DNA of 59,632 nucleotides, filler included. It is 8 parts of 8 records of this genome, joined end to end, with 100 filler letters (N's around TTAATTAATTAA, not from the genome) between each part and the next. Parts side by side here need not be neighbours in the genome. Positions count along the whole stretch, not along the records: positions 40,568 to 47,358 come from SRR31156797_74299; 7 more parts are not named here. One strand, written 5' to 3'. Position numbers and translations under genes: made by a program. Each line of letters begins with the position of its first letter. Within the stretch, counting starts at the first letter, position 1. Below the pieces are notes generated by a model. It saw nothing but the letters and a program-made list of their open reading frames with translations. It was not told where the DNA came from and did not search any database. Positions 4,993 to 53,203 of the stretch are shown piece by piece.

Positions 4993-5241
4993 ATGCAAAA
5001 TATAAAAGTCAAACAATCTGTCGTCTCACCAATTGGTGACGTGCCCCTTGGCGAATCGATGTGTTGCCAGCACTGGACCGTTGCAACAAAGAGCTGTTGT
5101 GTTTTCCAAGATGGGCTATACCTTCCCTCCTCCGAGCAAGTAGGCACCTATTGTACTTCCCGTTTTTTCACTGCATGCAGTTTATATCAGGAGTTCCGTG
5201 GTGAGCAGGAAAAAGGACAAGTAGATTTTAAAAGTCTTTGA
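4993..5241 (+). CDS. small Cys-rich hypothetical protein (true start may be 5041 or 5059)
   Basis: ORF with CC..CC..GLYLP..YC..C pattern directly after the activator; a GG-N10-GC element lies at 4967-4980. Confidence 0.45.
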   Translation: MQNIKVKQSVVSPIGDVPLGESMCCQHWTVATKSCCVFQDGLYLPSSEQVGTYCTSRFFTACSLYQEFRGEQEKGQVDFKSL

Positions 5242-5263
5242 AAACTGTTGATTTTTTTGTGAA

Positions 5264-5300
5264 AATTCCGGATTGAAATTCATTTTTCCGGAATTTCGAA
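5264..5300. promoter_or_regulatory. putative enhancer (UAS) motif, copy A
   Basis: AATTCCG-N12-TTTTTCCG-GAATTT-CGAA; aligns without gaps to the copies at 5497 and 7726. Confidence 0.6.
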
Positions 5301-5496
5301 TTTTGAGAATGGTGTTTTGGATGTGATCTAGAAATTCTGGTTCTGCAGTGTCGTCCTCGTTTTTCTCGTGCTTTCCTGTTTTCCGCACATTTTTTTTGTT
5401 CGTATGATTTCTATCAGAAGGGTTTTGGTTAGTCCCAAAAATGTGAAATTGTTTTTTGATGGGTATTCGAAGGTTGGAGGAGATATTTTTGGGTGA

Positions 5497-5534
5497 AATT
5501 CCGGAATAAAACCCATTTTTTCGGAATTTTGGAA
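5497..5534. promoter_or_regulatory. putative enhancer (UAS) motif, copy B
   Basis: AATTCCG-N12-TTTTTTCG-GAATTT-TGGAA, about 100 bp upstream of a sigma54 promoter. Confidence 0.65.
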
Positions 5535-5630
5535 GTTTGTGGTGGTGGTGTCTGTTTTTGATTTGGGAGTGGGGTAGGTAAGTTGGGATAAGGTGAAATT
5601 ATATTTCACCTTATCCCTTTTTGTTTTTTC

Positions 5631-5646
5631 GGGCATGGCTTGTGCA
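5631..5646 (+). promoter_or_regulatory. sigma54 -24/-12 promoter of the first PEP-CTERM gene
   Basis: GGGCATGGCTTGTGCA: GG(5632-33)-N10-GC(5644-45). Confidence 0.65.
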
Positions 5647-5750
5647 TAGTGTGGTGTAATAAATATGCTAGTCAATTATTAGGTTTTGCTTAGTATTTTG
5701 GTTATTCATACGAGAAAGATTATCTAATTCTACCTTGGAGAGAGAGTGAA

Positions 5751-6407
5751 ATGAAAAAAACTATATTGAAGAGTGCGATGACAGTATGTGTAGGTATGGG
5801 GCTTGTTGCTGGATATGCAGTAACAGCCTCTGCAATCACAATGACGCTTGATACTGGCGTGCCAATCATGTTAATCGATGCTGTAGAAGACACTGTATAC
5901 GGTCAAACAGAAAATACTACAGTAACTGTTTCCAATTGGGATATTAACGATGGTTATTTCTTTGAATACAATGTAAATGGTGGAGCATGGAACGATATCG
6001 CAAATATTCTTCCAGACGGAGATGAAGTGTCTTTTGATGGAGGTTCTGTACTTGATTTCAGAATGGTTAGCCTAGATAGATCGTCTGATTGGGTTCTTTC
6101 TAATGATGCCGATGACGATACTTTCAGCGTTCAGATGATTTTTTCTGAACCAATCGAGGCTATTAATTCTCAAAATCCAGTAGTTGCGAATAATTACTGG
6201 GACAATCTAGAAATATTCTGGACTCTACCTTCTATCCCAGGTCAAGTTGGGAAAACAACCTCCAGCCTCACAATTGAGACTGGTGATTACGGAGATCCAC
6301 AATCAAAATTCGACGGATTCGCCCCAGTCCCCGAACCAACCACTATGTTACTCTTTGGTACAGGCTTAGCTGGATTGGCTGGAGTTGCGCGCCGTAGAAG
6401 AAAGTAA
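5751..6407 (+). CDS. PEP-CTERM sorting-domain surface protein
   Basis: Signal peptide; C-terminus APVPEPTTMLLFGTGLAGLAGVARRRRK. Confidence 0.93.
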   Translation: MKKTILKSAMTVCVGMGLVAGYAVTASAITMTLDTGVPIMLIDAVEDTVYGQTENTTVTVSNWDINDGYFFEYNVNGGAWNDIANILPDGDEVSFDGGSVLDFRMVSLDRSSDWVLSNDADDDTFSVQMIFSEPIEAINSQNPVVANNYWDNLEIFWTLPSIPGQVGKTTSSLTIETGDYGDPQSKFDGFAPVPEPTTMLLFGTGLAGLAGVARRRRK

Positions 6408-9265: not shown

Positions 9266-9365
9266 NNNNNNNNNNNNNNNNNNNNNNNNNNNNNNNNNNN
9301 NNNNNNNNNTTAATTAATTAANNNNNNNNNNNNNNNNNNNNNNNNNNNNNNNNNNNNNNNNNNNN
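9266..9365. other. artificial contig spacer
   Basis: N44-TTAATTAATTAA-N44, with stops in all six frames. Confidence 0.98.
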
Positions 9366-9442: not shown

Positions 9443-11695
9443 TTAATCTTCAAAACTATTCTTTATAAACGGCTGATGATAATACCGGGTTCCGGTTGCC
9501 TTGTACATTGCATTTGCCAAAGCTGCCATTACCGGCGGATATGGCGGTTCGCCCATTCCGGTTGGGTGAATGTCGTTTTCTACAAAATAAGTTTCTATTG
9601 TTTTAGGCGCTTCCGCATGACGAATTAACCGATAACCGTCGAAATTACTTTGCTGAGGTTCACCCTGATTAAAAGTCAGCTCACCAAACATGGCTGTCCC
9701 AATTCCATCAACAACAGAGCCTTCTGTCATATTGATGGCTGCATCCGGATTAATAACAATTCCGCAGTCGTTTGCATTGTATACTTTATCTACTTTTGGA
9801 GTCCCATTTTCCATAATAACATCGACCACCTGAGCCGTGTAACTGTTATGGCAAAAATATGCAGCTACGCCTCGGTTTTTTCCTGCTGAATTGGAATTCC
9901 AGCCCGATTTGTCGCGGACCAGTTCCAGCACTCCTGCGTAGCGGGCGGCATCGTAATCGTTGTTTTCGCCCACCGGATTTTCCTGGGCGCGTTTTAATAA
10001 ATCGAGACGGAACTGAATTGGGTCAACTCCCATTTCTTCAGCCACTTCATCTAAAAACGACTGTTCGGCAGCTGCATTAAAATTGGAGCCGGGAGCACGC
10101 ATTGCACCTACACTAATATTGGATTCGATAGCCCAGCTTTCAGCCAGGTAATTGTCGAGAGCTCCTGCCGGGAAACGGTTCGCATGCAAAGCGTTTTCAG
10201 GTACTCCACCCATTTTTACATGAAATGCGGTGAGTTTATTATCCTTATCAAAAGCTGCCCGATAAACTGCATGGTACATCGGGCGGTAAATTCCAAATGT
10301 CATATCGTCTTCGCGGGTGTACACCAGTTTTACAGGTGCCTTTATTTGCTGAGAGATTACAGCTGCTTCCACCATAAAATGACCATACAGCCGACGACCA
10401 AAACCTCCTCCCATCCGGGTCATTTCAACCTGTACTTTTTCAAGGGGTAAACCGAGCCGGTCGGCTACCGATTTTTGCATTGGTTCCGGTGTTTGTGTCG
10501 GGCCAACAACCACGGCACTGTCGTCTTTTACATCGGCAAAAAAGTTCTGTGGTTCCATCGGGTTATGAGCCAGAAAAGGTGCGGTGTATGTTCGTTCCAG
10601 AATTTTGGCAGCATTTTGAAATGCTTCCTCGGGATTGCCATCTCTTCTTTCAACGCTGCCTGGTTTCGATGCTGCGGCAATCATTTTTGCTTTATGCTCC
10701 TGAGTGCTTTCCAAACCAGTGGGAACATTTACTTCCCGGGCATCTCCTCCCCAGCCTGCTGCTATATATTTTTGTTCGCTAAATGTTTCCCATTCTACGT
10801 TCAACATCAGTTTGGCAGTCCAAACCTCCCAGGTTGAATTTCCAACAATAACCACCATTTCGTTAAATGATATGGCATCAGACCATTGTCTTTCGTAATC
10901 GTCGTTATATGTTTTCAGGGTAAAAACATCTTTAATCCCAGGCATATCTTTTACCTCGTTGGGATCATACGATTTCAATTTCATACCAAAAGCCGGAGGA
11001 TGAATTATCATGGCAGTAAGCATTCCATCTACTTTATAGTCGAGACCGAATATAGGTTTACCGGTTACTATTTTTAGTCCGTCCACATTTTTTTTAGAAT
11101 TTCCGATAATCGTAAAATCTTTTAGCTCTTTTAAATCGACTTTTTCAGGAACAGGAACCTCTGCAGCAGCAGAAGCAAATTCGCCAAAACCGGCTTTCTT
11201 TCCGGTTGCTTCATGCATTAAAAAACCTTCTTTTGCGGTAACCTCATTAATCGGGACATTCCAGGCTTTGGCCGCTGCCTCACGTAACATTGTTCTTGCA
11301 GAAGCACCTGCCATTCGAAGGGTCGACCAGGTGGTACGGATCGAATCGCTGCCTCCCGCCAACTGCCGTGTATATTTTGTTGTATTTAGAGGTGCTTGTT
11401 CAACCATCACATCGTTCCAGTTCACATCCAGTTCTTCTGCCACAATCATGGGCATCGAAGTTTTTACATTCTGGCCAATTTCCGGATTGGGAGAAAAAAT
11501 GGTTACCACACCGTTTTCACCTATTTTGAGATAGCCATTTATATCAAACCATTCGTCGGGAATTGATATTCCTTTTTCTGCATTGGAACTGCAGGCTGAA
11601 GCCATCCAGTTAAATCCTATTAATAATCCGCCGCCAACGGCCAATGAACTTTTAAAAAAAGAGCGTCTGTCAAGTTTTGTTTTTACAAGTGTCAT
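9443..11695 (-). CDS. xanthine dehydrogenase-family molybdopterin-binding subunit (IorB-like), Tat-exported
   Basis: Tat motif DRRSFFK; EIGQNVKTSMPMIVAEEL, HNPMEPQN, RMGGGFGRR, MRAPG, GMGEPP. Confidence 0.9.
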   Translation of the reverse strand: MTLVKTKLDRRSFFKSSLAVGGGLLIGFNWMASACSSNAEKGISIPDEWFDINGYLKIGENGVVTIFSPNPEIGQNVKTSMPMIVAEELDVNWNDVMVEQAPLNTTKYTRQLAGGSDSIRTTWSTLRMAGASARTMLREAAAKAWNVPINEVTAKEGFLMHEATGKKAGFGEFASAAAEVPVPEKVDLKELKDFTIIGNSKKNVDGLKIVTGKPIFGLDYKVDGMLTAMIIHPPAFGMKLKSYDPNEVKDMPGIKDVFTLKTYNDDYERQWSDAISFNEMVVIVGNSTWEVWTAKLMLNVEWETFSEQKYIAAGWGGDAREVNVPTGLESTQEHKAKMIAAASKPGSVERRDGNPEEAFQNAAKILERTYTAPFLAHNPMEPQNFFADVKDDSAVVVGPTQTPEPMQKSVADRLGLPLEKVQVEMTRMGGGFGRRLYGHFMVEAAVISQQIKAPVKLVYTREDDMTFGIYRPMYHAVYRAAFDKDNKLTAFHVKMGGVPENALHANRFPAGALDNYLAESWAIESNISVGAMRAPGSNFNAAAEQSFLDEVAEEMGVDPIQFRLDLLKRAQENPVGENNDYDAARYAGVLELVRDKSGWNSNSAGKNRGVAAYFCHNSYTAQVVDVIMENGTPKVDKVYNANDCGIVINPDAAINMTEGSVVDGIGTAMFGELTFNQGEPQQSNFDGYRLIRHAEAPKTIETYFVENDIHPTGMGEPPYPPVMAALANAMYKATGTRYYHQPFIKNSFED

Positions 11696-19497: not shown

Positions 19498-19597
19498 NNN
19501 NNNNNNNNNNNNNNNNNNNNNNNNNNNNNNNNNNNNNNNNNTTAATTAATTAANNNNNNNNNNNNNNNNNNNNNNNNNNNNNNNNNNNNNNNNNNNN
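19498..19597. other. artificial contig spacer
   Basis: N44-TTAATTAATTAA-N44. Confidence 0.98.
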
Positions 19598-26898: not shown

Positions 26899-26998
26899 NN
26901 NNNNNNNNNNNNNNNNNNNNNNNNNNNNNNNNNNNNNNNNNNTTAATTAATTAANNNNNNNNNNNNNNNNNNNNNNNNNNNNNNNNNNNNNNNNNNNN
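26899..26998. other. artificial contig spacer
   Basis: N44-TTAATTAATTAA-N44. Confidence 0.98.
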
Positions 26999-34148: not shown

Positions 34149-34248
34149 NNNNNNNNNNNNNNNNNNNNNNNNNNNNNNNNNNNNNNNNNNNNTTAATTAA
34201 TTAANNNNNNNNNNNNNNNNNNNNNNNNNNNNNNNNNNNNNNNNNNNN
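34149..34248. other. artificial contig spacer
   Basis: N44-TTAATTAATTAA-N44. Confidence 0.98.
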
Positions 34249-37200
34249 CATAGGATTCAGAGAAAAATCCTTGAGATACTCGGTCAGCACTTCCTGGCTT
34301 GTGGAATTATCATCCACGATCAGAACGTCCATGCCCTTGAGATTAGGAGGAATGATTTCCCTGACGATCTCCTCTCTCACCTGGAACAGGGAGTTGAAGT
34401 AAAAGGTGGAGCCCTCGCCATATACGCTGCTCACGCCTATACGTCCTCCCATCATCTCGGCCAGGCGCTTGCTGATAGAAAGCCCCAGACCCGTGCCTCC
34501 GTACTTCCTCGTGGTAGAGGTGTCGGCCTGACTAAAGGCCTGGAAGAGCGTCCCTTGCTGTTCTCCGGTGAGACCTATTCCCGTATCACGCACCGAGAAT
34601 TTCAGGTCCGCCTCCGAATCCTTCATTCCCTGCAGTTCCACGCTAACGGCGATTTCTCCGACCTCCGTAAACTTGATCGCGTTGTTCGCCAGGTTAAGAA
34701 GCACCTGCCCCAGCCTTAGAGGATCTCCCATAAGCTGGGTGGGAACGCCGGTGCCGATATGGAATACCAACTCCAGATTCTTATCCCGGGCCTTTTCACT
34801 GATCATGCTGCCCAGATTGTCGAAGACGTCATGGAGATCAAAACTGATCTCCTCGATATCCAGCTTGCCCGCCTCGATCTTTGAGAAATCCAGGATATCG
34901 TTGATGATGCCCAAAAGGTTGTGGGCCGAACCGTGGATTTTCTGTATATAGTCTTCCTGTTTCTTAGTCAGATCGGTTTTCTGAATCAGATGGGACAGGC
35001 CTATGATGGCGTTCATGGGCGTCCTGATCTCATGGCTCATATTGGCCAGGAAGTTGGACTTGGCTCTGGTCGCCTCCTCCGCAAGCTCTTTGGCCTCTTT
35101 CAGCTCGTCCTCGAATTCGACCCGCTCGGTAAGGTCGATCCACATGGTAATGGCCAGCTCACCGAACTGAATAGTGTTGGATATGAGCTTGAGGATCTTT
35201 CCGGACTTCGCCCGGATGTCCAGGAACATCGGCTCCATGGGTTCTCCGGTTTCGGCGGACTTGGCGATGAGGCCGGTCCACTCTTCCCGGACCTTATCCC
35301 TGTAGGCCGGGTCGGGGTAGAACAGATCCCAGTGTGCTTCTACCGTGGGTATATCCTCCACCGTGTATCCCATCAGATTGGTGCAGGCCCTGTTCATATG
35401 AATGACCTCTCCGGTGGGGGAAAAGTGAGCCGCCGCAATAGGCATCTCCTCAATGAGGGTTTGCAGCTGGGCATGTTTTTCCTCCAGCTCCCTGCGGCCT
35501 TCTTCCGCCAGGTCTTTGGCATCCGCCAGGTTCTGTTCGGCGTTCTTCCGTTCGGTGATATCCTGATTGATTCCCATCAGGATTCTGGGACTGCCGTCGC
35601 TATTGCGTTCGACGATCTTGCCGGCTCCCGACAGCCAGACATACTCTTCATTGGAAGGGTGTCGGTAGCGGAACTCGGAGTAGTACATATCCGTTCTCCC
35701 TTCCAGGTGATCTGTAAGGTCCTGAAATGTACTGTCCCTGTCGTCAGGATGCAGACGCTCGCGCCAGACCTCCGAAACCTTCTGCTGGGAAGGATCGAAT
35801 CCGAAGACCGTTTCGTACATGGGAGACCCTATCGTTCTGTCTTCGGCCGTATACCATTCCCAAGTCGCCAGTCCGGCGCTTTCGGTGGCTATCTTAAAGC
35901 GTTCTTCGCTGCGCTTGATTTCGTCTTCAATCCTCTTACGCTCGGTGATGTCCAGGATGCTCCCGACCATGCGGAGGGGCTCCCCCCCCGGTCCGCGCTG
36001 GACGACCTTGCCACGGTCCTCGACCCATATGACGGAGCCGTCGTTCTTCAGAAGCCGATGCTCGCTGAAATAGGGAGAATCGTCTTCCAGGGTATTGTTG
36101 ATGCCCTTCATCACCATGTCCGCGTCTTCTGGATACAGGAGGGATCCGAAAAACTCCATATCATGGCGGAGGAAGGAAGGATCGAAGCCCATCATATCCA
36201 GCCAGGTATTGTTATGGCTGACCATTCCCGTTGAAACGTCCCAGTCCCAGATGCCTTCTCCCGTAGCCTCGAAGGCGTAAGCCAGCTGCTCCTGACTAAC
36301 CTTCAGGGCCTCTTCATTTCTTTTCTGATCCGTGATGTCCTGATAGGCTCCGTACATATACAGGATCTCGCCGTCCCTGTTACGGACCACCTTCCCCGCC
36401 GCATGTACCCAGACGATCCTGCCGTTTACAGGACTCTTATAGGCATACTCGGCATCATAGCTTTCGTATTTGCCGTCTATGGTCCCTTTGTAGCGTTCTG
36501 CGGCCAGGGCGGCGGTTTCCTTGTTGGCGGCTTCCAGATTGCAGAACCATTCATCCTGCAAATGATAGCGGCCGTCAGCTTTAGGCGGATCCCCCAGGAT
36601 TTCCGCTGCCCTTTCAGACTGGATGTAATAGTCCGGATCGCTGTAATCCACATGCCAGTAACCACTGTTGGTCAATTCCAGGGCCACATCGCTTCTGAAG
36701 TTAATCTGCTCGATCTCCTTCTGCTGCTCCAGCCGTTCGCTCAGGTCATGGAAGCTGACCAGAAGTACTGTATCGCCATCCAGTTCCAGAGGGGTCAGGG
36801 TGATTTCCACCGGCAGGAGGGAGCCGTCCTTTTTTTGATGCGTCCAGTCGAAGCGCAATCCGTTTTCCTTCAGGCTGAGGGCGATTTTCGCTGCTGCTTC
36901 CTCATCAGAACGGCTGCCGTTGGGCTGGTACTCAGGCGACAGGAAGCCGGGGGGATGGCCGATGATATCGGACTTCCGATCGTATCCGAGCATCTCCACG
37001 GCAGTTCTGTTACAGTCCGTAAAGATTCCGTTACTCAGTATGAGATAGGCATCGGCGGCCTTGTCAAAGAGTATTTCGAATCGTTCACGGCTTTTCCTTA
37101 TTTCCCGTTCCCCCTCCAGCCTCTCTGTGAGATCCTGATGGATGCCGGTCATGACCGAGGCCCGGCCCTGTCCGTTCAGGGATACATAGTATTTCACAAG

Positions 37201-40200
37201 AGCATGTTGCACAGCTCCTGATTTTGTAATGACCCTGTACTCGAACTGACCGTTGTGTTCACCCGTCCCAGCGGCGGCATGGGCGATCCTGTCCCGGACG
37301 ATGAGCCTATCCTCGGGATGGACATAGCGTTCGAGATAGGTCTCCGTATCCATTATGTATCCCCCCTCTTCACCGACTGTGGTTTCCAGAAGACGGTAAA
37401 CGCTGTCGCTGAAGGTCAGGACTCCGCTGACCAGGTCCAGTTTCCAATACCCCATCCGGGCCATTTCGGAAGCGAAATTAAGGGACTGATACATCTCCAT
37501 CAGTTCTCTGGAGGCATTCTTTCTCTCGGTAATGTCCAGAGAGTATTCGATCATCTGCACAACGTCGCCAATGTCATCAAAGATGGGATAACCGTGGACT
37601 TCAACAAAGCGAGGATTGTCGTTTTCATCAAAATGAATATGCTCCACTTCCACCTGGTCTTTGGTTTTCATCACCTCCACCAGGGGGCAGGGATGCTCCT
37701 TGCTGTCGCAGGGGGTATCTCTGCGATGGGTAAGACGGTAGCATGTGGATATTTCTTGTCCTTTGCTTGCTTTTTTCGCCGCCGAGTTGGCCAGGACGAT
37801 CTCATGAGTTTTCACATCAATCACATAAAAGGGGTGGGTGAGGGCTTCGATGGTGTTTTCCAGATTGCGTTTGCTCTCGGAAACCTCCCTGGTCCGCGCG
37901 GCGACCCGCCCTTCCAGCTCGTCATTGGCCCGGGCCAGAGAACTGTTGGCCCTCTCTCCGATGGAGATGCTGAAAATGGTCACTCCCGAAGCCACCAGGA
38001 TGATGATCACCAGAAGCATAACGACCAGAGTGAGGATCTGCCGGTAGGACTCCAGAGCATCAATGGTATCCACTTCGATAGTCAGGCCGTATTTCAAATG
38101 GGAATTCCAGAGCCATATGCCATAGACCTCCACTCCCCTGTAATCCCGGTAGCCTCTGAAGTTGAATCCCGACCGCCCGGCAAGGGCCTCTGAAGCCATC
38201 AGGGTAAAGGGTCGGTCCTCCTGGACGGCAACGGGAGGGAACCCCTCTTCCAGGTTTCCTCCGGGATCCTTGATATAAAGATTCAGGGCGCTGGACTGTC
38301 CAGCCTCCAGAAGACCGATGTTTTGCAGGGCCAGATCAAATCGGCTCTGGGAGAGGAGAAGCCCCGTTCTATCAAAGGCGTAGGTCTCCCCGGTACTTCC
38401 GAATCGGCCGATCTGACAGAGAGTTGTGAACATAGGGACCGGATCCTCGCTCTGAATCAGAACAGCGATGACATCGCCTGAATTATCGTATACGGGTACG
38501 GCATAATACATAACAGCCCGGTCAGGTCTTTCGTCCCCGACAGGGGAGGACAGGCCGGGGGGAATGAAAACAGGGCTTCCCCGCAGGACCTGCTCCCAGA
38601 GGGAAGGCTCCTTTTCGAAAACGACATGTTCTGATCCGATGCTGTTAACAAAAGACGATGCAAGATTAATGCCTTCGGGAGAAACGACGAAGTATGCGTC
38701 ATTAAAAGAGTAAGGAAGATACTTGTCGAAGTAATTGCGGATACTATCCATTTCAGAACTTGCCAGCAAGGCGTCCTTGCGGGGCTCCACTGCCAGAAGA
38801 TCACCTACCAGAAGACTGACCTGGGGATTCAGACCTACCTGCTCCACCTGCTTGAACATTTCACGAATCCTGTAGTCCAGGGCTTCGCTGGTAGTCTTGA
38901 GAGTCACATTCATATTCTCCCGGACAGAGGCGACAACATCTTTCCTGAACTTCGACAGGCCGATGTAGGAGATCAGGATGATAAAAGAAATGCTGATGCC
39001 GAGACTGACATAGCTGAACAGGCGTATCCTCCTGATGTTGAAGCCCTTCCTATTCTTTCGTTTCACCAGAATTTGAAAAACAACGAGTACGATAAGAAAG
39101 CCCGCCATAATCAGCAGGATCCTGATGAACAGTGCAAAAAGACTCAGACTCGGTTCGCCGCCGGGAAGTAGATCGCTGTCGTAGGCTCCGCCGAACCAGC
39201 GTTCGTTGAGGAGGTTCATTTCCTCTACGGTTACCTGGCTCATGGATTTCTGGAGGATGTTCCTTAGCTGAGGCCAGTCGTCACGAACGGCGATATTGAG
39301 TTTGCTGATCTCTTCATCTCCCAGATCCGCCTCGCCGGTCATGCTGATACCCCTCAGGCTGTTCTCGTCAATCAGATAGCGGATGACCGCCTGTTCCCCC
39401 AGGGAGGCATCCGCCTCGCCGAAGATAACGGCCTTCAGAGCTCCCAGCATATCTTCTTTCAGGAGCAGTTTGATCTGCGGAAAATCCCGCTCCAGGATTT
39501 CCTGATAGAAGAAGCCTTCGGGGATGGCAATGGTTTTCCCCGCCAGTTCGGATATCGCACTGTAGGGATACCTATCCCTGCTGACGATGGCATTGGGGTT
39601 CTGGGAGTAGGCGTCCGTGTAGAGAAGGTACCCCTCCCGGTCCTCTGTCCGGACGATGTTCAGCATCACATCCAGGTCTTTGCTTCTGATCATAGCCAGG
39701 AATTCGTTCCATGAGGGTCCGGAAATATATGTGATATCCAATCCGGCTTTCTCCGCCAGAAGATCCATGTAATCTATGGAGAATCCCATAGCCTTGTCAC
39801 TCTTATTGAAGTTGAAGGGAGGCCAGTCCATCTCATTGTGGATGCGAATGGTTCCGATATCCCTCAGAAACTGTTCCTCTTCGGGAGTCAGGATGATTTT
39901 CCTGGCTTTCCCGGCATCGATTGTCCGGGTCAATTCATCAAGATCCATGAAACTCCGAATGAGAGAATCATTGTGATTCTTCGAGTAGGGGATGAAATCG
40001 ATCTGTTCAGGAGAACGGGACATCAGCACCCGAAAGGAGGAGAGGTTAGACTTGTTCACCGCATACATGGGAGTGATGAAGGACAGGCCTTCTGAAGCGA
40101 AGTCGAATCCCTTCAGATAATCGTACATCATCAGAACGGACCAAGCACCCATCATGAAATGCCCGCCTACGGAACAGTGCTGTGTGCCTTCGAAGATAGC

Positions 40201-40467
40201 GCTCAGGGCCTCATCCGACCAGTTGACCCCTCCCAGAAAGATACGCTGTTCGATGCCCAGCTCCTCTATGGCGTCCCTTACCCCCGCAGCCATCCTGTCG
40301 CTGGCGCACCAGACCACATTAATTTCGGGATTCCGACCGTACTCGGTTTTAAAGATCTCCCCCGCAGTCTCCCTGTTCCAGGAAGCAGAAGCCTTCACAA
40401 AGCTTTTGACATCGGGATTCTGGCTGACAAAGGATTCCAGCCCTTCCGTCCGTTTCCGGGTTACCTC
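34249..40467 (-). CDS. very large hybrid sensor histidine kinase, partial at both ends
   Basis: Frame is open across the whole contig: sugar-type binding domain, SBP_bac_3 (DWPPF), TMs, Cache (YRDYRG), about seven PAS domains, H-box [16 protein letters not shown] boxes, start of REC (LIVDDN). Confidence 0.92.
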
Positions 40468-40567
40468 NNNNNNNNNNNNNNNNNNNNNNNNNNNNNNNNN
40501 NNNNNNNNNNNTTAATTAATTAANNNNNNNNNNNNNNNNNNNNNNNNNNNNNNNNNNNNNNNNNNNN
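40468..40567. other. artificial contig spacer
   Basis: N44-TTAATTAATTAA-N44. Confidence 0.98.
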
Positions 40568-40568
40568 A

Positions 40569-41300
40569 GGCGCATTCTCAGGGGCGGTCAAGGAACGCAA
40601 AGGTCGATTTGAACTGGCCCATAAAGGTACCTTGTTCCTGGACGAGGTGGCGGAACTGCCGTTGAAAACCCAAGTAAAATTGTTACGGTTCCTCCAGGAG
40701 GGATCATTCGAAAAAGTAGGCGGAGAAAAAAAAATCAGCGTGGATGTCAGAATTATCTCAGCCACCAACAAAGATCTGGCAAAAGAGGTCCGGCAAGAGC
40801 GCTTCAGGGAAGACCTTTACTACCGGCTCAATGTCATTCCCATCCACCTGCCTCCCCTGCGGGAAAGAAAAAATGATATCCCACTTTTAGCCGAGCATTT
40901 TTTGCGGGAGGCGGAAAAAGAAAACAAAAAAACCGTACCGGAACTTGCCCCTGATACCATCAGGGAAATGATGGACTACCACTGGCCGGGTAATGTCAGG
41001 GAATTAAAAAATGTGATCCAATTTTCCGTGGTCCGGTCCCGGGGCAGCGTTATCCTGCCCACAGATCTTCCCTTTGCATCCAATAGGCAGCCCATGCAGC
41101 CTAATGTATCAAATGAACCCGCAACGCCTGCGGTACCGGTTACCCGGGGCAAGCTCAATCAGGAAAATGTCCAAGCCGCCCTGGTCAAAACCGGAGGCAA
41201 TAAATCCAAAGCCGCCCGTGTTCTAGGTGTGGGCAGGGCAACCTTGTACCGCTTTCTAAGTGACCATCCGGAGATCAAAGCCTTTTCAGGCACCTTCTAA
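40569..41300 (+). CDS. sigma54-dependent activator, 5' truncated
   Basis: GAFSGA (from 40569), [26 protein letters not shown], Fis [22 protein letters not shown]. Confidence 0.92.
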
Positions 41301-41358
41301 GCCGGTAGAAATTATAATGGGTAGCCATAACATGAGAGGTTGTGGATAATTAGCATTA

Positions 41359-42285
41359 ATGGAAAAAGATTGTAGGATAAAATATTTTAAAGCTGCCGAT
41401 ATCACTATTCAGGTTCAATCTGATTATCCGATTGGAAAGAATACATTCCATTCAAAATTTGAGCGATTCGAAGTTTTTGGAAAAGATAAAGATTCGATTA
41501 CGATATTTCATCATTTCAACCCAAATGGCGAAGATAATGTATGGCCTAGGCCTGAGGGGGCGGAGAACGTTTATCAAAAAGATCAGTGGCGGATATTCAA
41601 GAATGATAGTCACTGGTTTTACTGCTATGATTCAATTTTCCCTAATGATCCGGTAAAAAAAGTTGTTGGAATAATAAACAATGATTATTCTGAAATTCAT
41701 ATTTATCCTGATAATATGTCAAAAGAAGTATACGCTCAGGGTCGATTCCCTGCGTTGACTTTGTTTAATACCGACCAGATGGTCTTTGCGAAGTTGCTCA
41801 GTGACCGTAATGGACTGGTGATCCATTCAAATGGGTTCAATATCAATGGTAACGGCGTTCTCATTGCAGGCGTGTCCGGTGCCGGGAAAAGTACCCTTTC
41901 AGGAATGCTTAAAAAATCAGGCCATGAAATCCTTTGCGATGACCGGATGTTTGTTCGGTCTATTGATGGGGGATTTCATGTTTTCGGCAATTGGTGTTAT
42001 GGATCTCACCCGGATGTGTCACCTTCCCATGCCCCCTTGTCCGGGGTTATATTTTTAAAAAAGGGGGGGCAGAACCGTATCAAGGAAATTACGGATCACA
42101 AAGCCATTGTATCAAAACTGGTACCGGTGATTGTGAAGCCCATGCTGGATGTTGGCGGGTGGAAAAAATATTTGTCTACATTTGAACGGCTGAGGAAATC
42201 AGCCCGGTTTTATGAAATTGAATTTGATTTATCCGGCAAAGCGGGCGATATTATAAACGATTATTTTAAATATGAATCTTTATAG
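41359..42285 (+). CDS. HprK-related P-loop kinase (ScmC/PadeK-like RiPP tailoring kinase)
   Basis: IHSNG, Walker A GVSGAGKST, ILCDDRM. Confidence 0.8.
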   Translation: MEKDCRIKYFKAADITIQVQSDYPIGKNTFHSKFERFEVFGKDKDSITIFHHFNPNGEDNVWPRPEGAENVYQKDQWRIFKNDSHWFYCYDSIFPNDPVKKVVGIINNDYSEIHIYPDNMSKEVYAQGRFPALTLFNTDQMVFAKLLSDRNGLVIHSNGFNINGNGVLIAGVSGAGKSTLSGMLKKSGHEILCDDRMFVRSIDGGFHVFGNWCYGSHPDVSPSHAPLSGVIFLKKGGQNRIKEITDHKAIVSKLVPVIVKPMLDVGGWKKYLSTFERLRKSARFYEIEFDLSGKAGDIINDYFKYESL

Positions 42286-42293
42286 TTGGAAAA

Positions 42294-42368
42294 CTCACAC
42301 AAAGACACCAAGACACAAAGGGAAATAAAACCCAATAAAAACTTTGTGTCTTGGTGTCTTTGTGTGAG
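42294..42368. repeat. perfect 27-bp inverted repeat built from 8-mers (REP/MITE-like hairpin)
   Basis: CTCACACAAAGACACCAAGACACAAAG (42294-42320) and its exact reverse complement (42342-42368). Confidence 0.9.
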
Positions 42369-42424
42369 AATAAATTTAGAGTTGCTGATAACCTGGTACT
42401 GAATCAATCTATTATTAAGGATAT

Positions 42425-42733
42425 GTGATGCCATCGTCTGTCGGATTAAATTGTATATATAAAATTTCAGAAGACGTTATTTTTAAAGAAATTGAAGGGA
42501 CTTCTATCCTGATTCCAATAATATCAGGGGTAGGGGATTTGAATTCTGATATTTTCCAGTTGAATGAAACCGGTTCCAGAGTGTGGGAGATGCTTGACGG
42601 CAAAACACCGCTTGAAAAGATCATCCTTAATCTGATTGATGAGTACGATGCGCCGGCAAAAATCATTGAACAAGACGTGTTAAATCTCATTGGAAATTTG
42701 GTGGAAAAACAATTTGTTTATGAAGTTTCATGA
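42425..42733 (+). CDS. PqqD-family protein (RiPP recognition element, RRE)
   Basis: VIFKEIEG..ILIP...IFQLNETGSRVWEMLDGK..LEKII..L..EYD......QDV..L...L.EK. Confidence 0.9.
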   Translation: MMPSSVGLNCIYKISEDVIFKEIEGTSILIPIISGVGDLNSDIFQLNETGSRVWEMLDGKTPLEKIILNLIDEYDAPAKIIEQDVLNLIGNLVEKQFVYEVS

Positions 42734-43200
42734 AAAATGAACGGCTCATGATTTCGGGCACTGCCTTTGCTTTGGTTGTGCAGACCGTTCTTAAAAAAGG
42801 GGTGACGGCAAAGTTCAAGGTCACCGGATCAAGCATGATACCCACGATTAGAAGCAATGATGTGGTTTCAATTTCACCATACAAGGAGAATAATCCTGAA
42901 GTTGGTGAGGTCGTTGCTTTGTTGGACCGGGCAAATAGCAGGATTATAATCCACAGAATTATCAAAAAGCGGGAAAACATGTTTTTGCTTAAAGGGGATG
43001 GTTTGTGGCGTTATGATGGCCTTTTTCCAAGAGAGTGGATTGCAGGGTTTGTTTCAGGGCTTGAAAGAAACGGTACTCCAATTTCGATGGATCGGCTAAT
43101 AACCGATAGAATCATTCGGATGTCAAAGTTAAGACTTTTTTGGCCGGTCAAGATTTTGTTCAAGATAGAAAATAGGGCAGGTTGTTTTTTTTGGCATTAA
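42730..43200 (+). CDS. S24/S26-family (signal peptidase-like) peptidase
   Basis: VTGSSMIPTI (Ser nucleophile), IIHRII (His base), LKGD; ATGA overlap with the PqqD gene. Confidence 0.85.
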   Translation: MKNERLMISGTAFALVVQTVLKKGVTAKFKVTGSSMIPTIRSNDVVSISPYKENNPEVGEVVALLDRANSRIIIHRIIKKRENMFLLKGDGLWRYDGLFPREWIAGFVSGLERNGTPISMDRLITDRIIRMSKLRLFWPVKILFKIENRAGCFFWH

Positions 43201-43207
43201 TATTGCT
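43192..43207 (+). promoter_or_regulatory. sigma54 -24/-12 promoter for the precursor and PEP-CTERM gene
   Basis: TGGCATTAATATTGCT: GG(43193-94)-N10-GC(43205-06). Confidence 0.75.
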
Positions 43208-43267
43208 GTTATGTTTTTGGCAGTGAATAGTGAAAGATCAAAATATAATTAACTAAGGAGATGAGTA

Positions 43268-43429
43268 ATGAAAGATAAAAATGAGGGTAAGTTAAAAAAG
43301 ACTTGGGTCGCTCCTGAGATTACAATTATTGAGGGCTTAGATTCCAGCATGGAATTTCTCTACACTGGAGATAACGGTAACCCTGGTGGCGGAACTATTG
43401 ATGGCGGAGACGGTGGTTTCCGCGGATGA
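43268..43429 (+). CDS. putative RiPP precursor peptide, 53 aa (not in the ORF track)
   Basis: RBS AAGGAG (43255-43260), 7 nt before the ATG; MKDKNEGKLKKTWVAPEITIIEGLDSSMEFLYTGDNGNPGGGTIDGGDGGFRG*; KKxWxxPxI leader motif; triple TGA stop. Confidence 0.8.
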   Translation: MKDKNEGKLKKTWVAPEITIIEGLDSSMEFLYTGDNGNPGGGTIDGGDGGFRG

Positions 43430-43497
43430 TGATGACCGCCTGAAAACTGGAAAATGTAACACAATGTTACCTGACATCTTAACAAGGAGGTGAAATT

Positions 43498-44271
43498 ATG
43501 AGTTTGGGATTGAACAAGAGACATTATTTCGTTTCTATCTTTTTTTTGTTGTTGCTTGCTTTGCCACTAAGTGCCTCTGCTCTGACTATTGATTCTGATT
43601 ATTACGGGGTTGGCGGGATTGGAGTTTATTTTGACATAAATAGAGATGGAGATGTTGCTGATTCGGGTGAAAGTTTTCAAACCGGCTCCTCAATGTTTCA
43701 AGTTAATTACAATAATTATAACACATGGGGATTCTGCATAGATTTAAGTAATGCGGTAGGGTTTGGCGAAAATGATATTGACGGTACTATTGAGATCACA
43801 GGCAATTATTTATATGTAAACTGGCTTATCGACACTTATGGGGGGGATTTGTTTGCACAAGCCAATTCTGGAACGGATATCAACCTTGCTGCTGCCGCGC
43901 TTGGCCTGGCAATTTGGGAAGTCTTATATGATGACTATGGCTCGTGGGATTCTAATTATACTACGGCGCAAGGTACCGGTGTTTTTTCATACATGAGGGA
44001 TCAAGTTGGAAGTGCTAATAATGGATATTACAGCGATATTAATGACAAGTATGATGAGTATATTGATCAATTGAGCTCTGCAGTTAGTAACACGGCTTCA
44101 TGGGCTAATTGGGAAAGTGAAGGAGAGTATAGTGTTCTTAAACTATCTCAGGCTAATGGTGCTGACGATACTCAGGACATTATCGTCAAAGTAGTTCCAG
44201 AACCCTCAACAGCCCTGCTTTTAGGCTTCGGGCTTCTCGGGCTGTGTGGCGTAGGGAGAAAAAGAGTGTAG
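43498..44271 (+). CDS. PEP-CTERM surface protein with thioester-domain-like motifs
   Basis: RBS AAGGAGG; signal peptide; GFCIDL, LAIWE, TQDII; VPEPSTALLLGFGLLGLCGVGRKRV. Confidence 0.9.
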   Translation: MSLGLNKRHYFVSIFFLLLLALPLSASALTIDSDYYGVGGIGVYFDINRDGDVADSGESFQTGSSMFQVNYNNYNTWGFCIDLSNAVGFGENDIDGTIEITGNYLYVNWLIDTYGGDLFAQANSGTDINLAAAALGLAIWEVLYDDYGSWDSNYTTAQGTGVFSYMRDQVGSANNGYYSDINDKYDEYIDQLSSAVSNTASWANWESEGEYSVLKLSQANGADDTQDIIVKVVPEPSTALLLGFGLLGLCGVGRKRV

Positions 44272-44303
44272 CATTCTCAATTGATTATTTCGCTTTTGCA
44301 GAG

Positions 44304-44331
44304 ACAGAGAGATTAACCCTCTCTGTTTTTG
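44304..44331 (+). terminator. intrinsic terminator
   Basis: ACAGAGAG-ATTAACC-CTCTCTGT followed by TTTT. Confidence 0.65.
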
Positions 44332-44366
44332 TGGTTTGATTTCAATGTCTTAGGGTCCATGTCTTC

Positions 44367-46211
44367 ATGACGCCGTCGTCACTTAAAAGCAAGCTGAAAA
44401 ATGCCATAAGGATTGATCGTGCTTTAACGTTTGTCTGGCAGGCTTCAAAGGGAACCACGATTTTGATGGGATTGCTGGTTGCGATTCTTGGTGTTCTTCC
44501 CATCGCTTCCCTTTACCTGGTTAAAATGATTATAGACCAGGTTGCTGCATTGGTTTCATCGCCACCGCTGGGGTTTATGGATCCGGCATTTCTTTTTGTT
44601 GCCCAGCTCATTACAGCGGCGTGCAGCATTGGGCTGCTGGCTGCGTTGCTCGGTTTTGCTGCTGACTATATCAAAAAGTCACAAGCCCATACCGTTGCCG
44701 ATTATATGTATGCCGTTCTTCACAAGCAATCCTGCCGGGTGGACCTCGCATTTTTTGAATCACCAAAATACCGGGATACCTTATTCCGGGCCCAGCAGGA
44801 AGGACCGTACCGGCCGACAAATATCGTCAACGGGCTATTTGCCGCCGGGCAGGCCGGGGCATCGTTTATAGCTGTTGCCTGGTTGTTGGCGGTGTTTAAC
44901 CCTTTGCTGCCGCTGATCATTGTTGCAGCGGCAGTGCCCGGTATTCTTCTAAGGCTGAATTATTCAAAGAAAATTTATGAATGGCAGGAAAAGAGGACTG
45001 AGGATGAACGGCGTGCCTATTATTTCCATTGGATGCTGACCGGTGCTGCCCATGCCCAGGAGTTCAGGCTGTTTAACATTGGGCAGTATTTCATTGACAG
45101 ATTTAAAAAGATTCGCCAAATTTTGAGAAAGGAGAAGCTTTGGTTTGAACGCCGACGGGCCATGGGGGACTTTATCGCCCAGGCAAGCTCCCTGATCTGC
45201 GTGTTTGGAGCCTTTGCATATATCGCTTTAAAAGCTGCTAATAGCGAAATTACAATAGGTGATTTGGTCATGTATTTTCAGGCATTTCAGCGGGGACTTG
45301 GCTTTTTGAAAACGCTGTTGGAAACCGGCGCGGAAATGTATGAGGATAATCTATTTTTATCCCATTTTTATGAATTTTTAAACGTCGAACCCGATGTTCA
45401 ATCTCCATCAAATCCGGTGCAGGTACCTGAACATATAAAATCCGGTATAGAATTCAAAAGTGTGAACTTTTTTTATCAAAATAGTGAAAAAAAAGTATTG
45501 GATTGTGTAGACTTTTCCATAAAGTCTGGTGAAATAATTGCGTTGGTCGGAAAAAATGGTTCGGGAAAATCAACAATTGTAAAAATTTTAACCCGCCTTT
45601 ATGATCCCCAAAAAGGAGGGGTGTATTTGGATGGTGTTAATATAAAAAAGTTCGACCCAGACTTGTTCAGGGAAAAAATCAGTGTGGTGTTCCAGGATCA
45701 TATAAAATATTACCTGAAGGCCGGTGAAAATATTTCGTTGGGCGACATAAGGCGACATGCTGACGAAGGCAGTCTCCAGGCAGCCGCACAAGAAGCCGGC
45801 ATTCATAAAAAAATTCGCCGGCTGCCTGGTGGATATGATACACTCCTTGGTCGCTGGTTTGAAAACGGAGAAGAGTTGAGTATTGGGCAATGGCAGATGC
45901 TTGCGATTTCCAGGGCGTTTTTCAGGGATGCCCAAATTGTCATTCTTGACGAACCGTCCAGCGCACTTGATCCTGAAGCCGAAAAAAAATTGTTTGTTTC
46001 GTTACGGCGGTTAATGCAAAATCGTTCTGCCCTGATCATCAGCCATCGCTATTCAACCGTCCGGCAGGCGGACAGGATACTGGTCATGGACCAAGGAAGG
46101 ATAATTGAGCAGGGCAGCCATGACGACTTGATGGGGCTTGGCGGAGAATATGCCCGCCTTTACAATACGCAGGCAAAGGGATATACCACGATAAAAGAGG
46201 ACGCCAATTGA
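44367..46211 (+). CDS. ABC exporter (fused permease/ATPase, no C39 peptidase domain)
   Basis: Six-TM region; GKNGSGKST, signature variant LSIGQWQ, ILDEPSSALD, ISHR. Confidence 0.9.
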   Translation: MTPSSLKSKLKNAIRIDRALTFVWQASKGTTILMGLLVAILGVLPIASLYLVKMIIDQVAALVSSPPLGFMDPAFLFVAQLITAACSIGLLAALLGFAADYIKKSQAHTVADYMYAVLHKQSCRVDLAFFESPKYRDTLFRAQQEGPYRPTNIVNGLFAAGQAGASFIAVAWLLAVFNPLLPLIIVAAAVPGILLRLNYSKKIYEWQEKRTEDERRAYYFHWMLTGAAHAQEFRLFNIGQYFIDRFKKIRQILRKEKLWFERRRAMGDFIAQASSLICVFGAFAYIALKAANSEITIGDLVMYFQAFQRGLGFLKTLLETGAEMYEDNLFLSHFYEFLNVEPDVQSPSNPVQVPEHIKSGIEFKSVNFFYQNSEKKVLDCVDFSIKSGEIIALVGKNGSGKSTIVKILTRLYDPQKGGVYLDGVNIKKFDPDLFREKISVVFQDHIKYYLKAGENISLGDIRRHADEGSLQAAAQEAGIHKKIRRLPGGYDTLLGRWFENGEELSIGQWQMLAISRAFFRDAQIVILDEPSSALDPEAEKKLFVSLRRLMQNRSALIISHRYSTVRQADRILVMDQGRIIEQGSHDDLMGLGGEYARLYNTQAKGYTTIKEDAN

Positions 46212-46594
46212 AAAAAAGAAGCTGTAACAGATTTTATATTCCAGGGGTCACGCTTCACTATCGGGAATCGTCATTTTTTTTCCTAAAAAGAAAATTTACA
46301 CAAGACTATTTTCCTGTGATCAATTTGAGTAAGGGCGGGGCAAAATTTTTATCCCACAAGCGACTGACGCCCGGAAAGGATCTTTTAATCAGGCTGAATA
46401 TTCCCGGCCGGGAAAATTCATGTGAGATCATGGCTGATGTCCGGTGGATATCAAGGAATCCGGAACAAAGTTATAAGTACCAGACCGGAATATCATTCAA
46501 ATCCTTTGGGAACGGAAAGAAAAAAAATTCTAAAAAAATTCTGGATTTTCTTACAAACCTTGAAAATTCAGGTGAAAATATCGATGCGACATAA
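46208..46594 (+). CDS. PilZ-domain protein
   Basis: RSCNR (RxxxR) and NLSKGG ([DN]xSxxG), VRW...GISF. Confidence 0.8.
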   Translation: MKKRSCNRFYIPGVTLHYRESSFFFLKRKFTQDYFPVINLSKGGAKFLSHKRLTPGKDLLIRLNIPGRENSCEIMADVRWISRNPEQSYKYQTGISFKSFGNGKKKNSKKILDFLTNLENSGENIDAT

Positions 46595-46607
46595 TTAATT
46601 CGAATTC

Positions 46608-46623
46608 AGGTACTTTTATTGCA
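46608..46623 (+). promoter_or_regulatory. sigma54-like promoter
   Basis: AGGTACTTTTATTGCA: GG(46609-10)-N10-GC(46621-22). Confidence 0.6.
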
Positions 46624-46703
46624 TTCTTTTTATTGTTATTGCGTTACTGCATAACAGCGAATAAACATAATTTATATTTATACGTTAAATATAAGGAGGT
46701 AGA

Positions 46704-47291
46704 ATGAAATACTTTGTGTCAATCCTGACTGCTGCTTTTTTGACAGCAGTATGCTGCACCCTAGGTACAGCACAGCCCACAGATGGGGACGACCTGTCTT
46801 GGTATCAGGCCTTTACAGAAGATCTTGAAAAAATCGGCAATCCTCAGAAAACCGATGGGCTTGGGTATACATTGACTGAAGAAGAGGCACTGGACCAGGC
46901 CATTGACAAGGCAATCAGTGACGGAGGATCTGCCTGCATGGTTGTAAAAATATCAGCCGGGATGAATTTTAATCCCTATTCTGTGCTTTCCAGCATTTTT
47001 AAATCCGGTGGGAAAGTTGAACTGGACCAGTTGTGTATGTGTGCAACTGAAACCGGTGACACTAATCCATTGTTAAGCGATCTTGATCTTGAGGATATTC
47101 CCATTAATAAAACTGTAATGAAACAGGCGGCCGATGATGCTGTTGCCGCCAATCTGCTCACCCAGGGCGAAGTTTCCCAGGCCCAGTGCCTGATGACCGA
47201 ACAGAACGATCAGGGTCTGGCATTTACCGATGAGATCACTCAAATTGAACGGAGTGATCCTGCGGGGGTGGCCACCGCTTATTCGGAATAG
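46704..47291 (+). CDS. secreted acidic Cys-containing hypothetical protein
   Basis: RBS AAGGAGG, signal peptide, several Cys residues (AC, CMC, QC). Confidence 0.75.
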   Translation: MKYFVSILTAAFLTAVCCTLGTAQPTDGDDLSWYQAFTEDLEKIGNPQKTDGLGYTLTEEEALDQAIDKAISDGGSACMVVKISAGMNFNPYSVLSSIFKSGGKVELDQLCMCATETGDTNPLLSDLDLEDIPINKTVMKQAADDAVAANLLTQGEVSQAQCLMTEQNDQGLAFTDEITQIERSDPAGVATAYSE

Positions 47292-47358
47292 AAGTTTTGT
47301 TTACTCAATGACCGAGTGTTTAACGTTGGGGGATCGAAGCGAAATCTCATGTGATTGC

Positions 47359-47458
47359 NNNNNNNNNNNNNNNNNNNNNNNNNNNNNNNNNNNNNNNNNN
47401 NNTTAATTAATTAANNNNNNNNNNNNNNNNNNNNNNNNNNNNNNNNNNNNNNNNNNNN
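47359..47458. other. artificial contig spacer
   Basis: N44-TTAATTAATTAA-N44. Confidence 0.98.
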
Positions 47459-53103: not shown

Positions 53104-53203
53104 NNNNNNNNNNNNNNNNNNNNNNNNNNNNNNNNNNNNNNNNNNNNTTAATTAATTAANNNNNNNNNNNNNNNNNNNNNNNNNNNNNNNNNNNNNNNNN
53201 NNN
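53104..53203. other. artificial contig spacer
   Basis: N44-TTAATTAATTAA-N44. Confidence 0.98.

Follow-up and report, generated by a model that had tools for sequence, protein, structure and literature searches.

What would be made by a locus in which an HprK-like kinase, a PqqD-type protein, an S26 peptidase and an ATP-binding cassette (ABC) exporter surround a very short open reading frame (ORF), and in which no cyclase, B2 protease or radical SAM enzyme is seen? This question is raised by a cassette of genes at positions 41359-46211 of a stretch of DNA of 59,632 nucleotides (the window). An earlier note, made from the letters alone, had proposed that it encodes a minimal pathway for a peptide made on ribosomes and modified post-translationally (RiPP), possibly of an undescribed class, dependent on a RiPP recognition element (RRE) and tied to a PEP-CTERM surface protein and to sigma54 control. 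As described below, the cassette is real and conserved in sulfate-reducing Desulfobacterales, and it is probably a Gram-negative version of a class that has already been described, that of the linear polyphosphorylated peptides (LPP).

A conserved cassette with its own short precursor

The cassette was compared with homologous loci found with a profile of its kinase (23 homologues), which led to 18 genome loci and 21 metagenome loci. The counts given here refer to the 17 Desulfobacterales genome loci, analyzed by tblastn and ORF clustering, and a total of 18 means the window plus these 17. The remaining genome locus (L018, from Omnitrophota) carries a different, radical-SAM cassette and was left out of all counts, as were two loci with matches to the P-loop only (L038 and L039), and metagenome loci that duplicate others were counted once (L026 = L009, L028 = L010, L032 = L013 and L034 = L015).

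As shown in Table 1, the conserved set consists of the HprK-like kinase, the PqqD-type RRE, the S26 peptidase, a precursor of 43-59 amino acids, the PEP-CTERM protein, the MsbA-like ABC exporter, a PilZ-domain protein and a protein of 195 amino acids in the window (p195). The ORF listing and the Pfam and NCBIfam scans confirmed that all the ORFs named in the earlier note are present and co-oriented on the + strand, and the ATGA coupling that it had read between PqqD and the peptidase is there, with the ATG of the latter overlapping the PqqD stop. Its expectation that kinase, RRE, S26 peptidase, short WxxP ORF and PEP-CTERM gene go together was borne out when the neighbourhoods of the homologous loci were compared. 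The S26 gene lies in some loci upstream of the kinase and not after PqqD, always within the module. Locus L010 keeps the peptide genes, the S26 gene included, without the PEP-CTERM gene and with the ABC gene reduced to a fragment. In L009, two PqqD genes (9687-9986 and 10921-11217) flank the kinase and there is no S26 gene, the precursor being kept; this may be a natural variant in which another leader peptidase is used.

Table 1. Coordinates of the features in the window and their presence among the 17 genome loci (or among those covering the place).
Feature	Position	Strand	Sequence characteristics	Genome loci
Sigma54 activator (enhancer-binding protein), C-terminal part	40632-41300	+	PF00158 101 bits, AAA_lid_14, HTH_8; cut by contig end	
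HprK-like P-loop kinase (LppK-like)	41359-42285	+	family matches in P-loop region only	17/17
Perfect 27-bp inverted repeat, 21-nt loop	42294-42368	.	in 139-nt kinase-PqqD spacer	
Discrete PqqD-family RRE (LppB-like)	42425-42733	+	PF05402 57.5 bits (cut-off 23.4)	17/17
ER/archaeal-type S26 peptidase (LppS-like)	42730-43200	+	PF00717 29.6 bits; archaeal signal peptidase I model E 6.5e-10	16/17; without it in L009
Sigma54 -24/-12 promoter-like site	43192-43207	+	76 nt before precursor ATG; one mismatch to TGGCAC-N5-TTGCW	
Putative 53-aa precursor (LppA-like)	43268-43429	+	AAGGAG ribosome-binding site; W13-x-x-P16-x-I leader; G/N/D/P-rich tail	17/17
PEP-CTERM surface protein, predicted thioester-domain fold, distantly PepA-like	43498-44271	+	PF07589 25 bits (cut-off 20.7)	15/16 covering the place; without it in L010
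Terminator-like hairpin	44296-44334	+	after PEP-CTERM gene; 16-pair stem then T run; consensus match only	
MsbA-like half-size ABC exporter (LppD-like)	44367-46211	+	MsbA_lipidA 288 bits, best match, below cut-off	15/16 intact; fragment only in L010
PilZ-domain protein	46208-46594	+	PF07238 30.2 bits	11/16 covering the place
Weak sigma54-like site	46608-46623	+	two mismatches; before 195-aa gene	
195-aa protein (p195)	46704-47291	+	signal-like N-terminal segment, several Cys, usually own sigma54 promoter	16/16 covering the place
PF14907 protein				12/17
Linkers (100 nt each)	9266-9365, 19498-19597, 26899-26998, 34149-34248, 40468-40567, 47359-47458, 53104-53203			

The kinase has 93 homologues, and nearly all the named ones belong to metagenome-assembled genomes of Desulfobacterales, mostly with names beginning in Desulfobacter. 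A strong full-length match to the kinase (E <1e-50) was detected in about 13 of 201 sampled genomes of the same order, so the cassette is a minority trait.

The claim that this is an RRE-dependent peptide-maturation cassette with a short WxxP precursor of its own stood up to the comparison, the precursor being kept in 18/18 loci. It was further found in all the metagenome loci that cover the place (11/11), and the metagenomes gave 7 further distinct copies. The 18 precursors align over a motif W-x-x-P-x-[LI], whose Trp and Pro never vary, and the motif is followed by a conserved stretch that ends in Glu-[Thr/Asn/Phe]-[Val/Leu]-[Leu/Tyr]. A conserved Glu-x stands 15-17 residues after the Trp, and counted from it the first Ser or Thr appears at core position 3 to 7. 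Beyond this point the tail is variable and rich in Gly, Pro, Ser, Asp, Asn and Gln. Judged by its sequence, the precursor shows the leader and core pattern of a RiPP.

The proteins that would act on this precursor are the RRE, the S26 peptidase and the kinase. When a profile of the RRE made from 17 orthologues was run against the Protein Data Bank (PDB), the lasso-type TbiB1 was at the top (36 bits), with PqqD, PbaB1 (9x90, 24.7 bits), LppB (9x8z, 22.9 bits) and TfuB1 also matched, PbaB1 and LppB scoring below PqqD itself. In the S26 peptidase, residues S35, H75, D90 and D96 are invariant in 17/17 sequences, and the nearest solved relatives of its profile are the eukaryotic SEC11C and SEC11A and not the bacterial signal peptidases, from which we take it to be of the Ser/His type of the endoplasmic reticulum (ER) and archaea. 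A complex prediction for RRE, S26 peptidase and precursor spoke neither for nor against binding, as a control with a replaced peptidase scored too close.

The score of the kinase with PF07475 was 29.6 bits, under the cut-off of 33.3, and the NCBIfam models for HprK_rel_B (E 7.6e-9), HPr(Ser) kinase and ScmC (E 6.2e-8) match on the P-loop region only, at E values around 1e-8 to 1e-9. The residues H156, G171, S173, G174, G176, K177, T179, D195 and R196 are invariant among the 23 sequences, and the G-x-S-G-x-G-K-x-T loop, H156 and the D195-R196 pair align with active-site positions of HprK when the profile is compared with the PDB. Its AlphaFold2 model, with a mean confidence (pLDDT) of 90.3, matches the folds of phosphoenolpyruvate carboxykinase (PEPCK) and of HprK/P.

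The earlier note had also stated that no cyclase, B2 protease or radical SAM lies between the flanking genes, a statement that cannot be judged from the window alone because the genes beyond 40568-47358 belong to other contigs. The Pfam and NCBIfam scans of the proteins of its own contig gave no macrolactam synthase, B2 protease or radical SAM, and the absence from inside the cassette holds in the 17 longer homologous loci, where no Asn-synthase cyclase and no Transglut_core3 B2 protease were found among the recurrent clusters and a further 42 representative ORFs of at least 130 amino acids. When PF13471 was looked for in five relatives' genomes, only two marginal partial matches appeared, in 2/5 of them and within ORFs of about 500 amino acids. 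A radical SAM/SPASM gene is present in 3/17 loci (L003, at 5224-6234; L004; L012), lying between glycosyltransferases 4-6 kb upstream of the cassette, and its product may act on the peptide or on a sugar.

Comparison with linear polyphosphorylated peptides

The same set of enzymes has been described, and in part proven, in Bacillota, so that the idea of an undescribed RiPP class is not supported. The available text of Popov et al. (Nat Commun 2026, PMC13381572), the only paper that a literature search on linear polyphosphorylated peptides returned, presents the LPP system of Paenibacillus alginolyticus, made of LppA, LppK, LppB, LppS, LppD and LppN. There, the precursor has the leader YxxPxVLxHQxIxFETxxS, LppK is HprK-like, LppB is a discrete RRE, LppD is MsbA-like and LppN is an NTP transferase, and the clusters have no cyclase and lie inside capsular polysaccharide loci of Bacilli (PMC13381572). 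By heterologous expression, deletions and mass spectrometry, LppK was reported to phosphorylate the core residue Ser3 as many as four times, and LppS, with S29, H68 and D93, to need presentation by LppB for cutting the leader off after T-1 (PMC13381572). LppN was inactive in the sole experiment that the same text gives, and according to it the final product and the function were not found, a role in biofilms being suggested (PMC13381572).

The two systems resemble each other in their enzymes and in their logic. Both have an HprK-like kinase (recognized here by its residues and its fold), a discrete PqqD-type RRE, beside it a leader peptidase of the Ser/His/Asp ER/archaeal type, an MsbA-like pump and a PF14907 protein, the latter found here in relatives. 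The precursor is short in both, its leader of the form [Y/W]xxPx[L/V/I], its N-terminus conserved and its C-terminal tail variable and rich in Gly, Pro, Asn and Asp. Neither has a macrolactam synthase in its loci (17 here), the product being presumably linear, and both have a place in a polysaccharide locus. The differences are also several. The cassette belongs to Desulfobacterota whereas LPP belong to Bacillota; the leader starts with Trp here and with Tyr in LPP; and the junction, FET|xxS in LPP, reads E-[TNF] here, with the next hydroxyl residue at variable distance. The setting here is a Gram-negative Wza/Wzc/EpsL locus with a conserved sigma54 promoter, and the fixed companions are the PEP-CTERM protein with its predicted thioester domain (TED), PilZ and p195.

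On this basis we consider it likely that the cassette encodes a pathway of the LPP type, leading to a phosphorylated, leader-trimmed and exported peptide. A sigma54-dependent promoter, whose position is conserved and whose activity is inferred, would drive the precursor together with the PEP-CTERM gene that follows. By analogy with the LPP enzymes, the discrete RRE would bind the W-x-x-P-x-[LI] leader, the kinase would phosphorylate a hydroxyl residue just beyond the leader-core junction, and the cytoplasmic S26 peptidase, with Ser35, His75 and an Asp, would cut off the leader once the junction is presented by the RRE. In most relatives the PF14907 nucleotidyltransferase may add a sugar-phosphate, and the MsbA-like pump would then move the linear phosphopeptide, rich in Gly, Pro, Ser and Asp, over the inner membrane. 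As this enzyme is also present in most of the relatives, two genes upstream of the cassette, the pathway was not well described as minimal.

Several observations weigh against this interpretation and have to be set beside it. The tail of the precursor in the window contains Thr only and no Ser, and LppK did not accept an S3T change in the LPP precursor (PMC13381572, in the part of the text available); more generally, the phospho-acceptor is not conserved in the manner of the FET|xxS junction. The RRE profile is no nearer to LppB than to the lasso RREs, and the kinase stays below every curated family cut-off. Homologues of the kinase carry precomputed matches to PF07475 and to PF27840, and the latter, a newer model, is the only one that covers the family. 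The S26 gene is missing from L009, the place of PF14907 is not covered in the window since the contig ends before it, and it may be for the polysaccharide, not for the peptide, that the ABC pump works. A match to the sigma54 activator was not obtained in L001-L039 by tblastn, its adjacency being seen only in the window, and a search of sequencing runs found no RNA sequencing run with this locus.

The RRE being no closer to LppB, the cassette may have arisen in parallel to the LPP of Bacillota instead of being orthologous to it by common descent. Popov et al. call the class restricted to Bacillota, and in the portion of their Supplementary Data 1 that is accessible there are no Desulfobacterales, the few pairs of signal peptidase I (SpI) and RRE from outside Bacillota being entered as "other RRE" (PMC13381572). 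The class is months old and has no known function, and by the loci described here Desulfobacterota are seen to have an enzyme set of the LPP type. The leader is of interest too: in Bacillota, a Trp-type WxxP leader marks the paeninodin-like lasso leaders, and LppB tolerates Trp (PMC13381572, available text), so that a leader type that separates lasso from LPP pathways there would serve an LPP-like pathway here.

Other known systems share parts of the cassette. With the paeninodin and pseudomycoidin clusters it has in common the HprK-like kinase, PF14907, the discrete RRE, the WxxP leader and the ABC pump, but it has neither macrolactam synthase nor B2 cysteine protease. As far as the accessible text of PMC8498205 goes, the C-terminal Ser of lasso precursors of the paeninodin type is a target of HprK-like kinases, and in pseudomycoidin a nucleotidyltransferase of the PF14907 type adds hexoses to the phosphoserine of the lasso peptide. 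The C-termini of the precursors vary here, and therefore a C-terminal Ser cannot be the phosphorylation site. As in SynChlorMet, an HprK-like and a PqqD-like protein occur together; the cassette differs in having no radical SAM, and the ScmC and ScmD models gave 32 bits (cut-off 125) and 19.6 bits (cut-off 100), respectively. A SynChlorMet-like locus was seen separately in Omnitrophota (L018, 264-7144), with a glycosyltransferase, a PqqD-like protein, a radical SAM, an HprK-like protein, a radical SAM/SPASM, encoded by the other strand, and an ABC-2 exporter.

That the cassette could be a decayed lasso or SynChlorMet-type cluster, after loss of its cyclase or radical SAM, is hardly credible: a lasso-like leader motif and RRE, weak ScmC and ScmD matches and the radical SAM/SPASM genes of three loci would fit it, but cyclase and B2 protease occur in 0/17 loci, the full set is kept even where kinase identity falls to 32-45%, unlike in decaying clusters, the radical SAM genes lie outside the cassette among glycosyltransferases, and the true SynChlorMet-like locus has a different gene set.

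Sigma54-type promoter, predicted thioester-domain fold and exopolysaccharide setting

All 18/18 loci have a sigma54 site at 40-95 nt upstream of where the precursor starts; 8 of these sites are perfect, 7 have one mismatch and 3 have two. The background was 67 sites in 316,797 positions, that is, 0.042 per 200 nt. Over the whole window the consensus appears at the level of chance (27 found against 28 expected), so only the conservation of its position across loci is meaningful. The precursor and the PEP-CTERM gene share one such promoter in the 15/15 sources that have both (the window and 14 loci). With the site upstream and the terminator-like hairpin after the PEP-CTERM gene, the two genes look like one sigma54-driven unit as far as the sequence goes. 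The link to sigma54 and PEP-CTERM biology proposed in the earlier note is borne out by these data, with the promoter before every precursor and the PEP-CTERM gene following in 15/16 covering loci. Of its statement that the cassette stands next to a sigma54 activator, one part remains: the C-terminal part of such a protein is present in the window, and the adjacency is not found in the other loci. The best NCBIfam matches of this activator, PrdR and the PEP-CTERM-box response regulator, stay well under their cut-offs, the protein being incomplete. A further sigma54 site, with one mismatch at most, precedes the p195 gene in 13/16 homologous loci. The p195 protein itself had no Pfam or NCBIfam match, and a protein Atlas search gave only clusters named "hypothetical protein". 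The putative regulation of the precursor and PEP-CTERM unit by a conserved sigma54 site is what is new here, the LPP class itself being known already.

The PEP-CTERM protein was analyzed as a family of 18 members. All of them match floc_PepA below its cut-off, and 11/18 match the Pfam TED model (PF08341), with a best E value of 5e-5. In a Foldseek search with the AlphaFold2 model (pLDDT 74.1) no match was obtained at E <= 0.001, and the weak rows were all thioester domains; by VIA-align, nine thioester-domain entries gave Z scores of 11.4, 11.0, 9.3, 9.0, 8.9, 8.9, 8.8, 8.5 and 7.6, with the next entry at 2.6. According to the model, the protein has a thioester-domain fold. The family has the motifs [GA][FY]C[VI][DE], in which the Cys is invariant, and [LMI]Q[LIM][AV]IW, and an invariant Gln directly before the sorting signal. 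Two residues, C80 and Q226, never vary; Q136, the Gln of LQxAIW, is present in 17/18 members, the copy of the window having a Gly (GGC) there. With the class I thioester domains of Gram-positive bacteria (Cpa, SfbI, TIE; 4c0z, 5a0l, 6fwv, 6fwy, 5a0g) it shares the predicted fold (Z 11.4-7.6), the invariant Cys in [FY]C[VI][DE] and the conserved Gln, and it differs from them in that it occurs in a diderm and carries a PEP-CTERM tail, with a thioester bond that is putative and that Gly in the window copy.

This protein also resembles the cargo of PEP-CTERM/exosortase systems, with its C-terminal PF07589 and with an exosortase (PF09721) in 5/5 relatives' genomes searched, in all of them far from the locus. 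RpoN-dependent floc genes of the PepA type have been published (PMC9850573, in the text available), and the cassette has in common with these exopolysaccharide (EPS) floc systems a distantly PepA-like protein, an EPS locus, the sigma54 control and the exosortase in the genome; by contrast, the exosortase lies outside the cassette locus and no PrsK/PrsR pair was seen. Literature searches gave nothing joining "thioester domain" with "PEP-CTERM", and nothing joining PEP-CTERM and PqqD in the sense of a cassette.

In the homologous loci the cassette is embedded in an EPS locus of the Wzx/Wzy type. Upstream, a polyprenyl glycosylphosphotransferase for EPS priming (TIGR03025, 409 bits, over cut-off) is found in 14 loci, the PF14907 NTP_transf_5 protein (127-177 bits) stands directly before it, often there is a VanZ-like protein, and farther away there are GT4, GT2 and WecG glycosyltransferases and Wzy-like proteins. 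Downstream, an outer-membrane barrel like EpsL/TIGR03016 is present in 15 loci, a Wza/EpsE-like exporter in 12 and a Wzc-type chain-length protein and tyrosine kinase in 12, in such a way that in 12-14 loci the cassette lies between the priming enzyme and the Wza/Wzc genes. In some loci (L001, 4334-5326; L007, 934-2340, 4020-4838 and 9540-9947) the kinase gene is separated from that of the priming transferase by HipA-like, Fic, DUF4143/AAA_14 and 23S-rRNA-IVS-protein genes, and this junction seems to tolerate insertions of mobile or toxin-antitoxin type. Regarding the ABC exporter, models of the HepA family and of type I secretion also match, below their cut-offs, and its identity to the proteins of the homologous loci is 55-67%.

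From this context, a location within a Wzx/Wzy-type locus, the product of the LPP-type pathway most likely acts in the building of the matrix or biofilm, or signals for it. The polysaccharide setting has been reached twice, in a Gram-positive capsule locus and in a Gram-negative Wza/Wzc locus, and we therefore argue that peptide and polysaccharide are linked by function and not by accident. The sigma54 promoter and the fixed neighbours (the TED-type PEP-CTERM protein, PilZ and p195) offer testable handles on the role of the peptide in matrix building.

How close this link may be is where a first alternative arises, one that extends the LPP interpretation rather than replacing it. The peptide might not be set free, and might instead be a primer, cap or linker for the EPS or for the TED surface protein; the kinase and the PF14907 enzyme would build a phospho-sugar link, and the peptide would end covalently bound to the polysaccharide or to the thioester. 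The position of the cassette between priming enzyme and Wza/Wzc genes, with PF14907 beside the priming enzyme in 12/17 loci, is in line with it, and so are the single promoter shared by precursor and PEP-CTERM gene, the hexosylation of a lasso phosphoserine by an enzyme of the PF14907 type (PMC8498205, accessible text) and the location of LPP in capsule loci, with a final product that Popov et al. did not find according to the available text (PMC13381572). But co-transcription alone is no proof of a physical partnership, L010 has the peptide genes without the PEP-CTERM gene and with only a fragment of the ABC gene, and LppN showed no activity in the one experiment of that text (PMC13381572). 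We regard this alternative as unlikely.

A related proposal, which we put forward tentatively and hold to be improbable at present, is that the phosphopeptide and the TED-fold PEP-CTERM protein, made from a single sigma54-driven transcript of the polysaccharide locus, are a functional pair, in which the processed and possibly phospho-glycosylated peptide would be joined to the thioester or to the polysaccharide to give a biofilm matrix cross-linked by peptides. If this were true, it would be the first biological role for LPP-type peptides and for Gram-negative thioester domains.

A quite different role for the peptidase is very improbable in our opinion, namely that it is a dedicated signal peptidase of its PEP-CTERM neighbour, as SipW is for TasA, with the short ORF not being its substrate. 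The enzyme is indeed of the same ER/archaeal type as SipW (PMC13381572, available text), and a secreted protein of matrix type is encoded two genes downstream. Nevertheless, its gene is translationally coupled to that of the RRE and stays by the kinase and the RRE even when moved upstream of the kinase, its N-terminus reads in the alignment as a conserved amphipathic segment and not as a membrane anchor, L010 retains it without the PEP-CTERM gene, and LppS is reported there as a proven RRE-dependent leader peptidase (PMC13381572).

Contig limits and other sequences in the window

The window is made of 8 contigs chained by linkers of 100 nt (N44 + TTAATTAATTAA + N44), and since these linkers separate contigs, no gene neighbourhood can be read across them. 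The real contig of the cassette spans 40568-47358, in such a way that only the truncated sigma54 activator, PilZ and p195 are its true neighbours; neither the large histidine kinase on its left nor the GGDEF/EAL genes on its right are neighbours, as they belong to other contigs. The former is a hybrid sensor kinase encoded on the - strand at 34201-40398, with an ORF of >2000 amino acids whose two ends run into linkers, and its translation, read by eye, contains a periplasmic-binding part, multiple PAS domains, HisKA/HATPase and receiver parts. Being on another contig, it is unrelated to the cassette.

Within the cassette itself, the inverted repeat between kinase and PqqD occurs a single time in the window and is absent from the closest relative, L019, where the spacer is about 30 nt long. 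Stabilizing the transcript would be one possible role for this repeat; it could also be a footprint that a small mobile element left behind.

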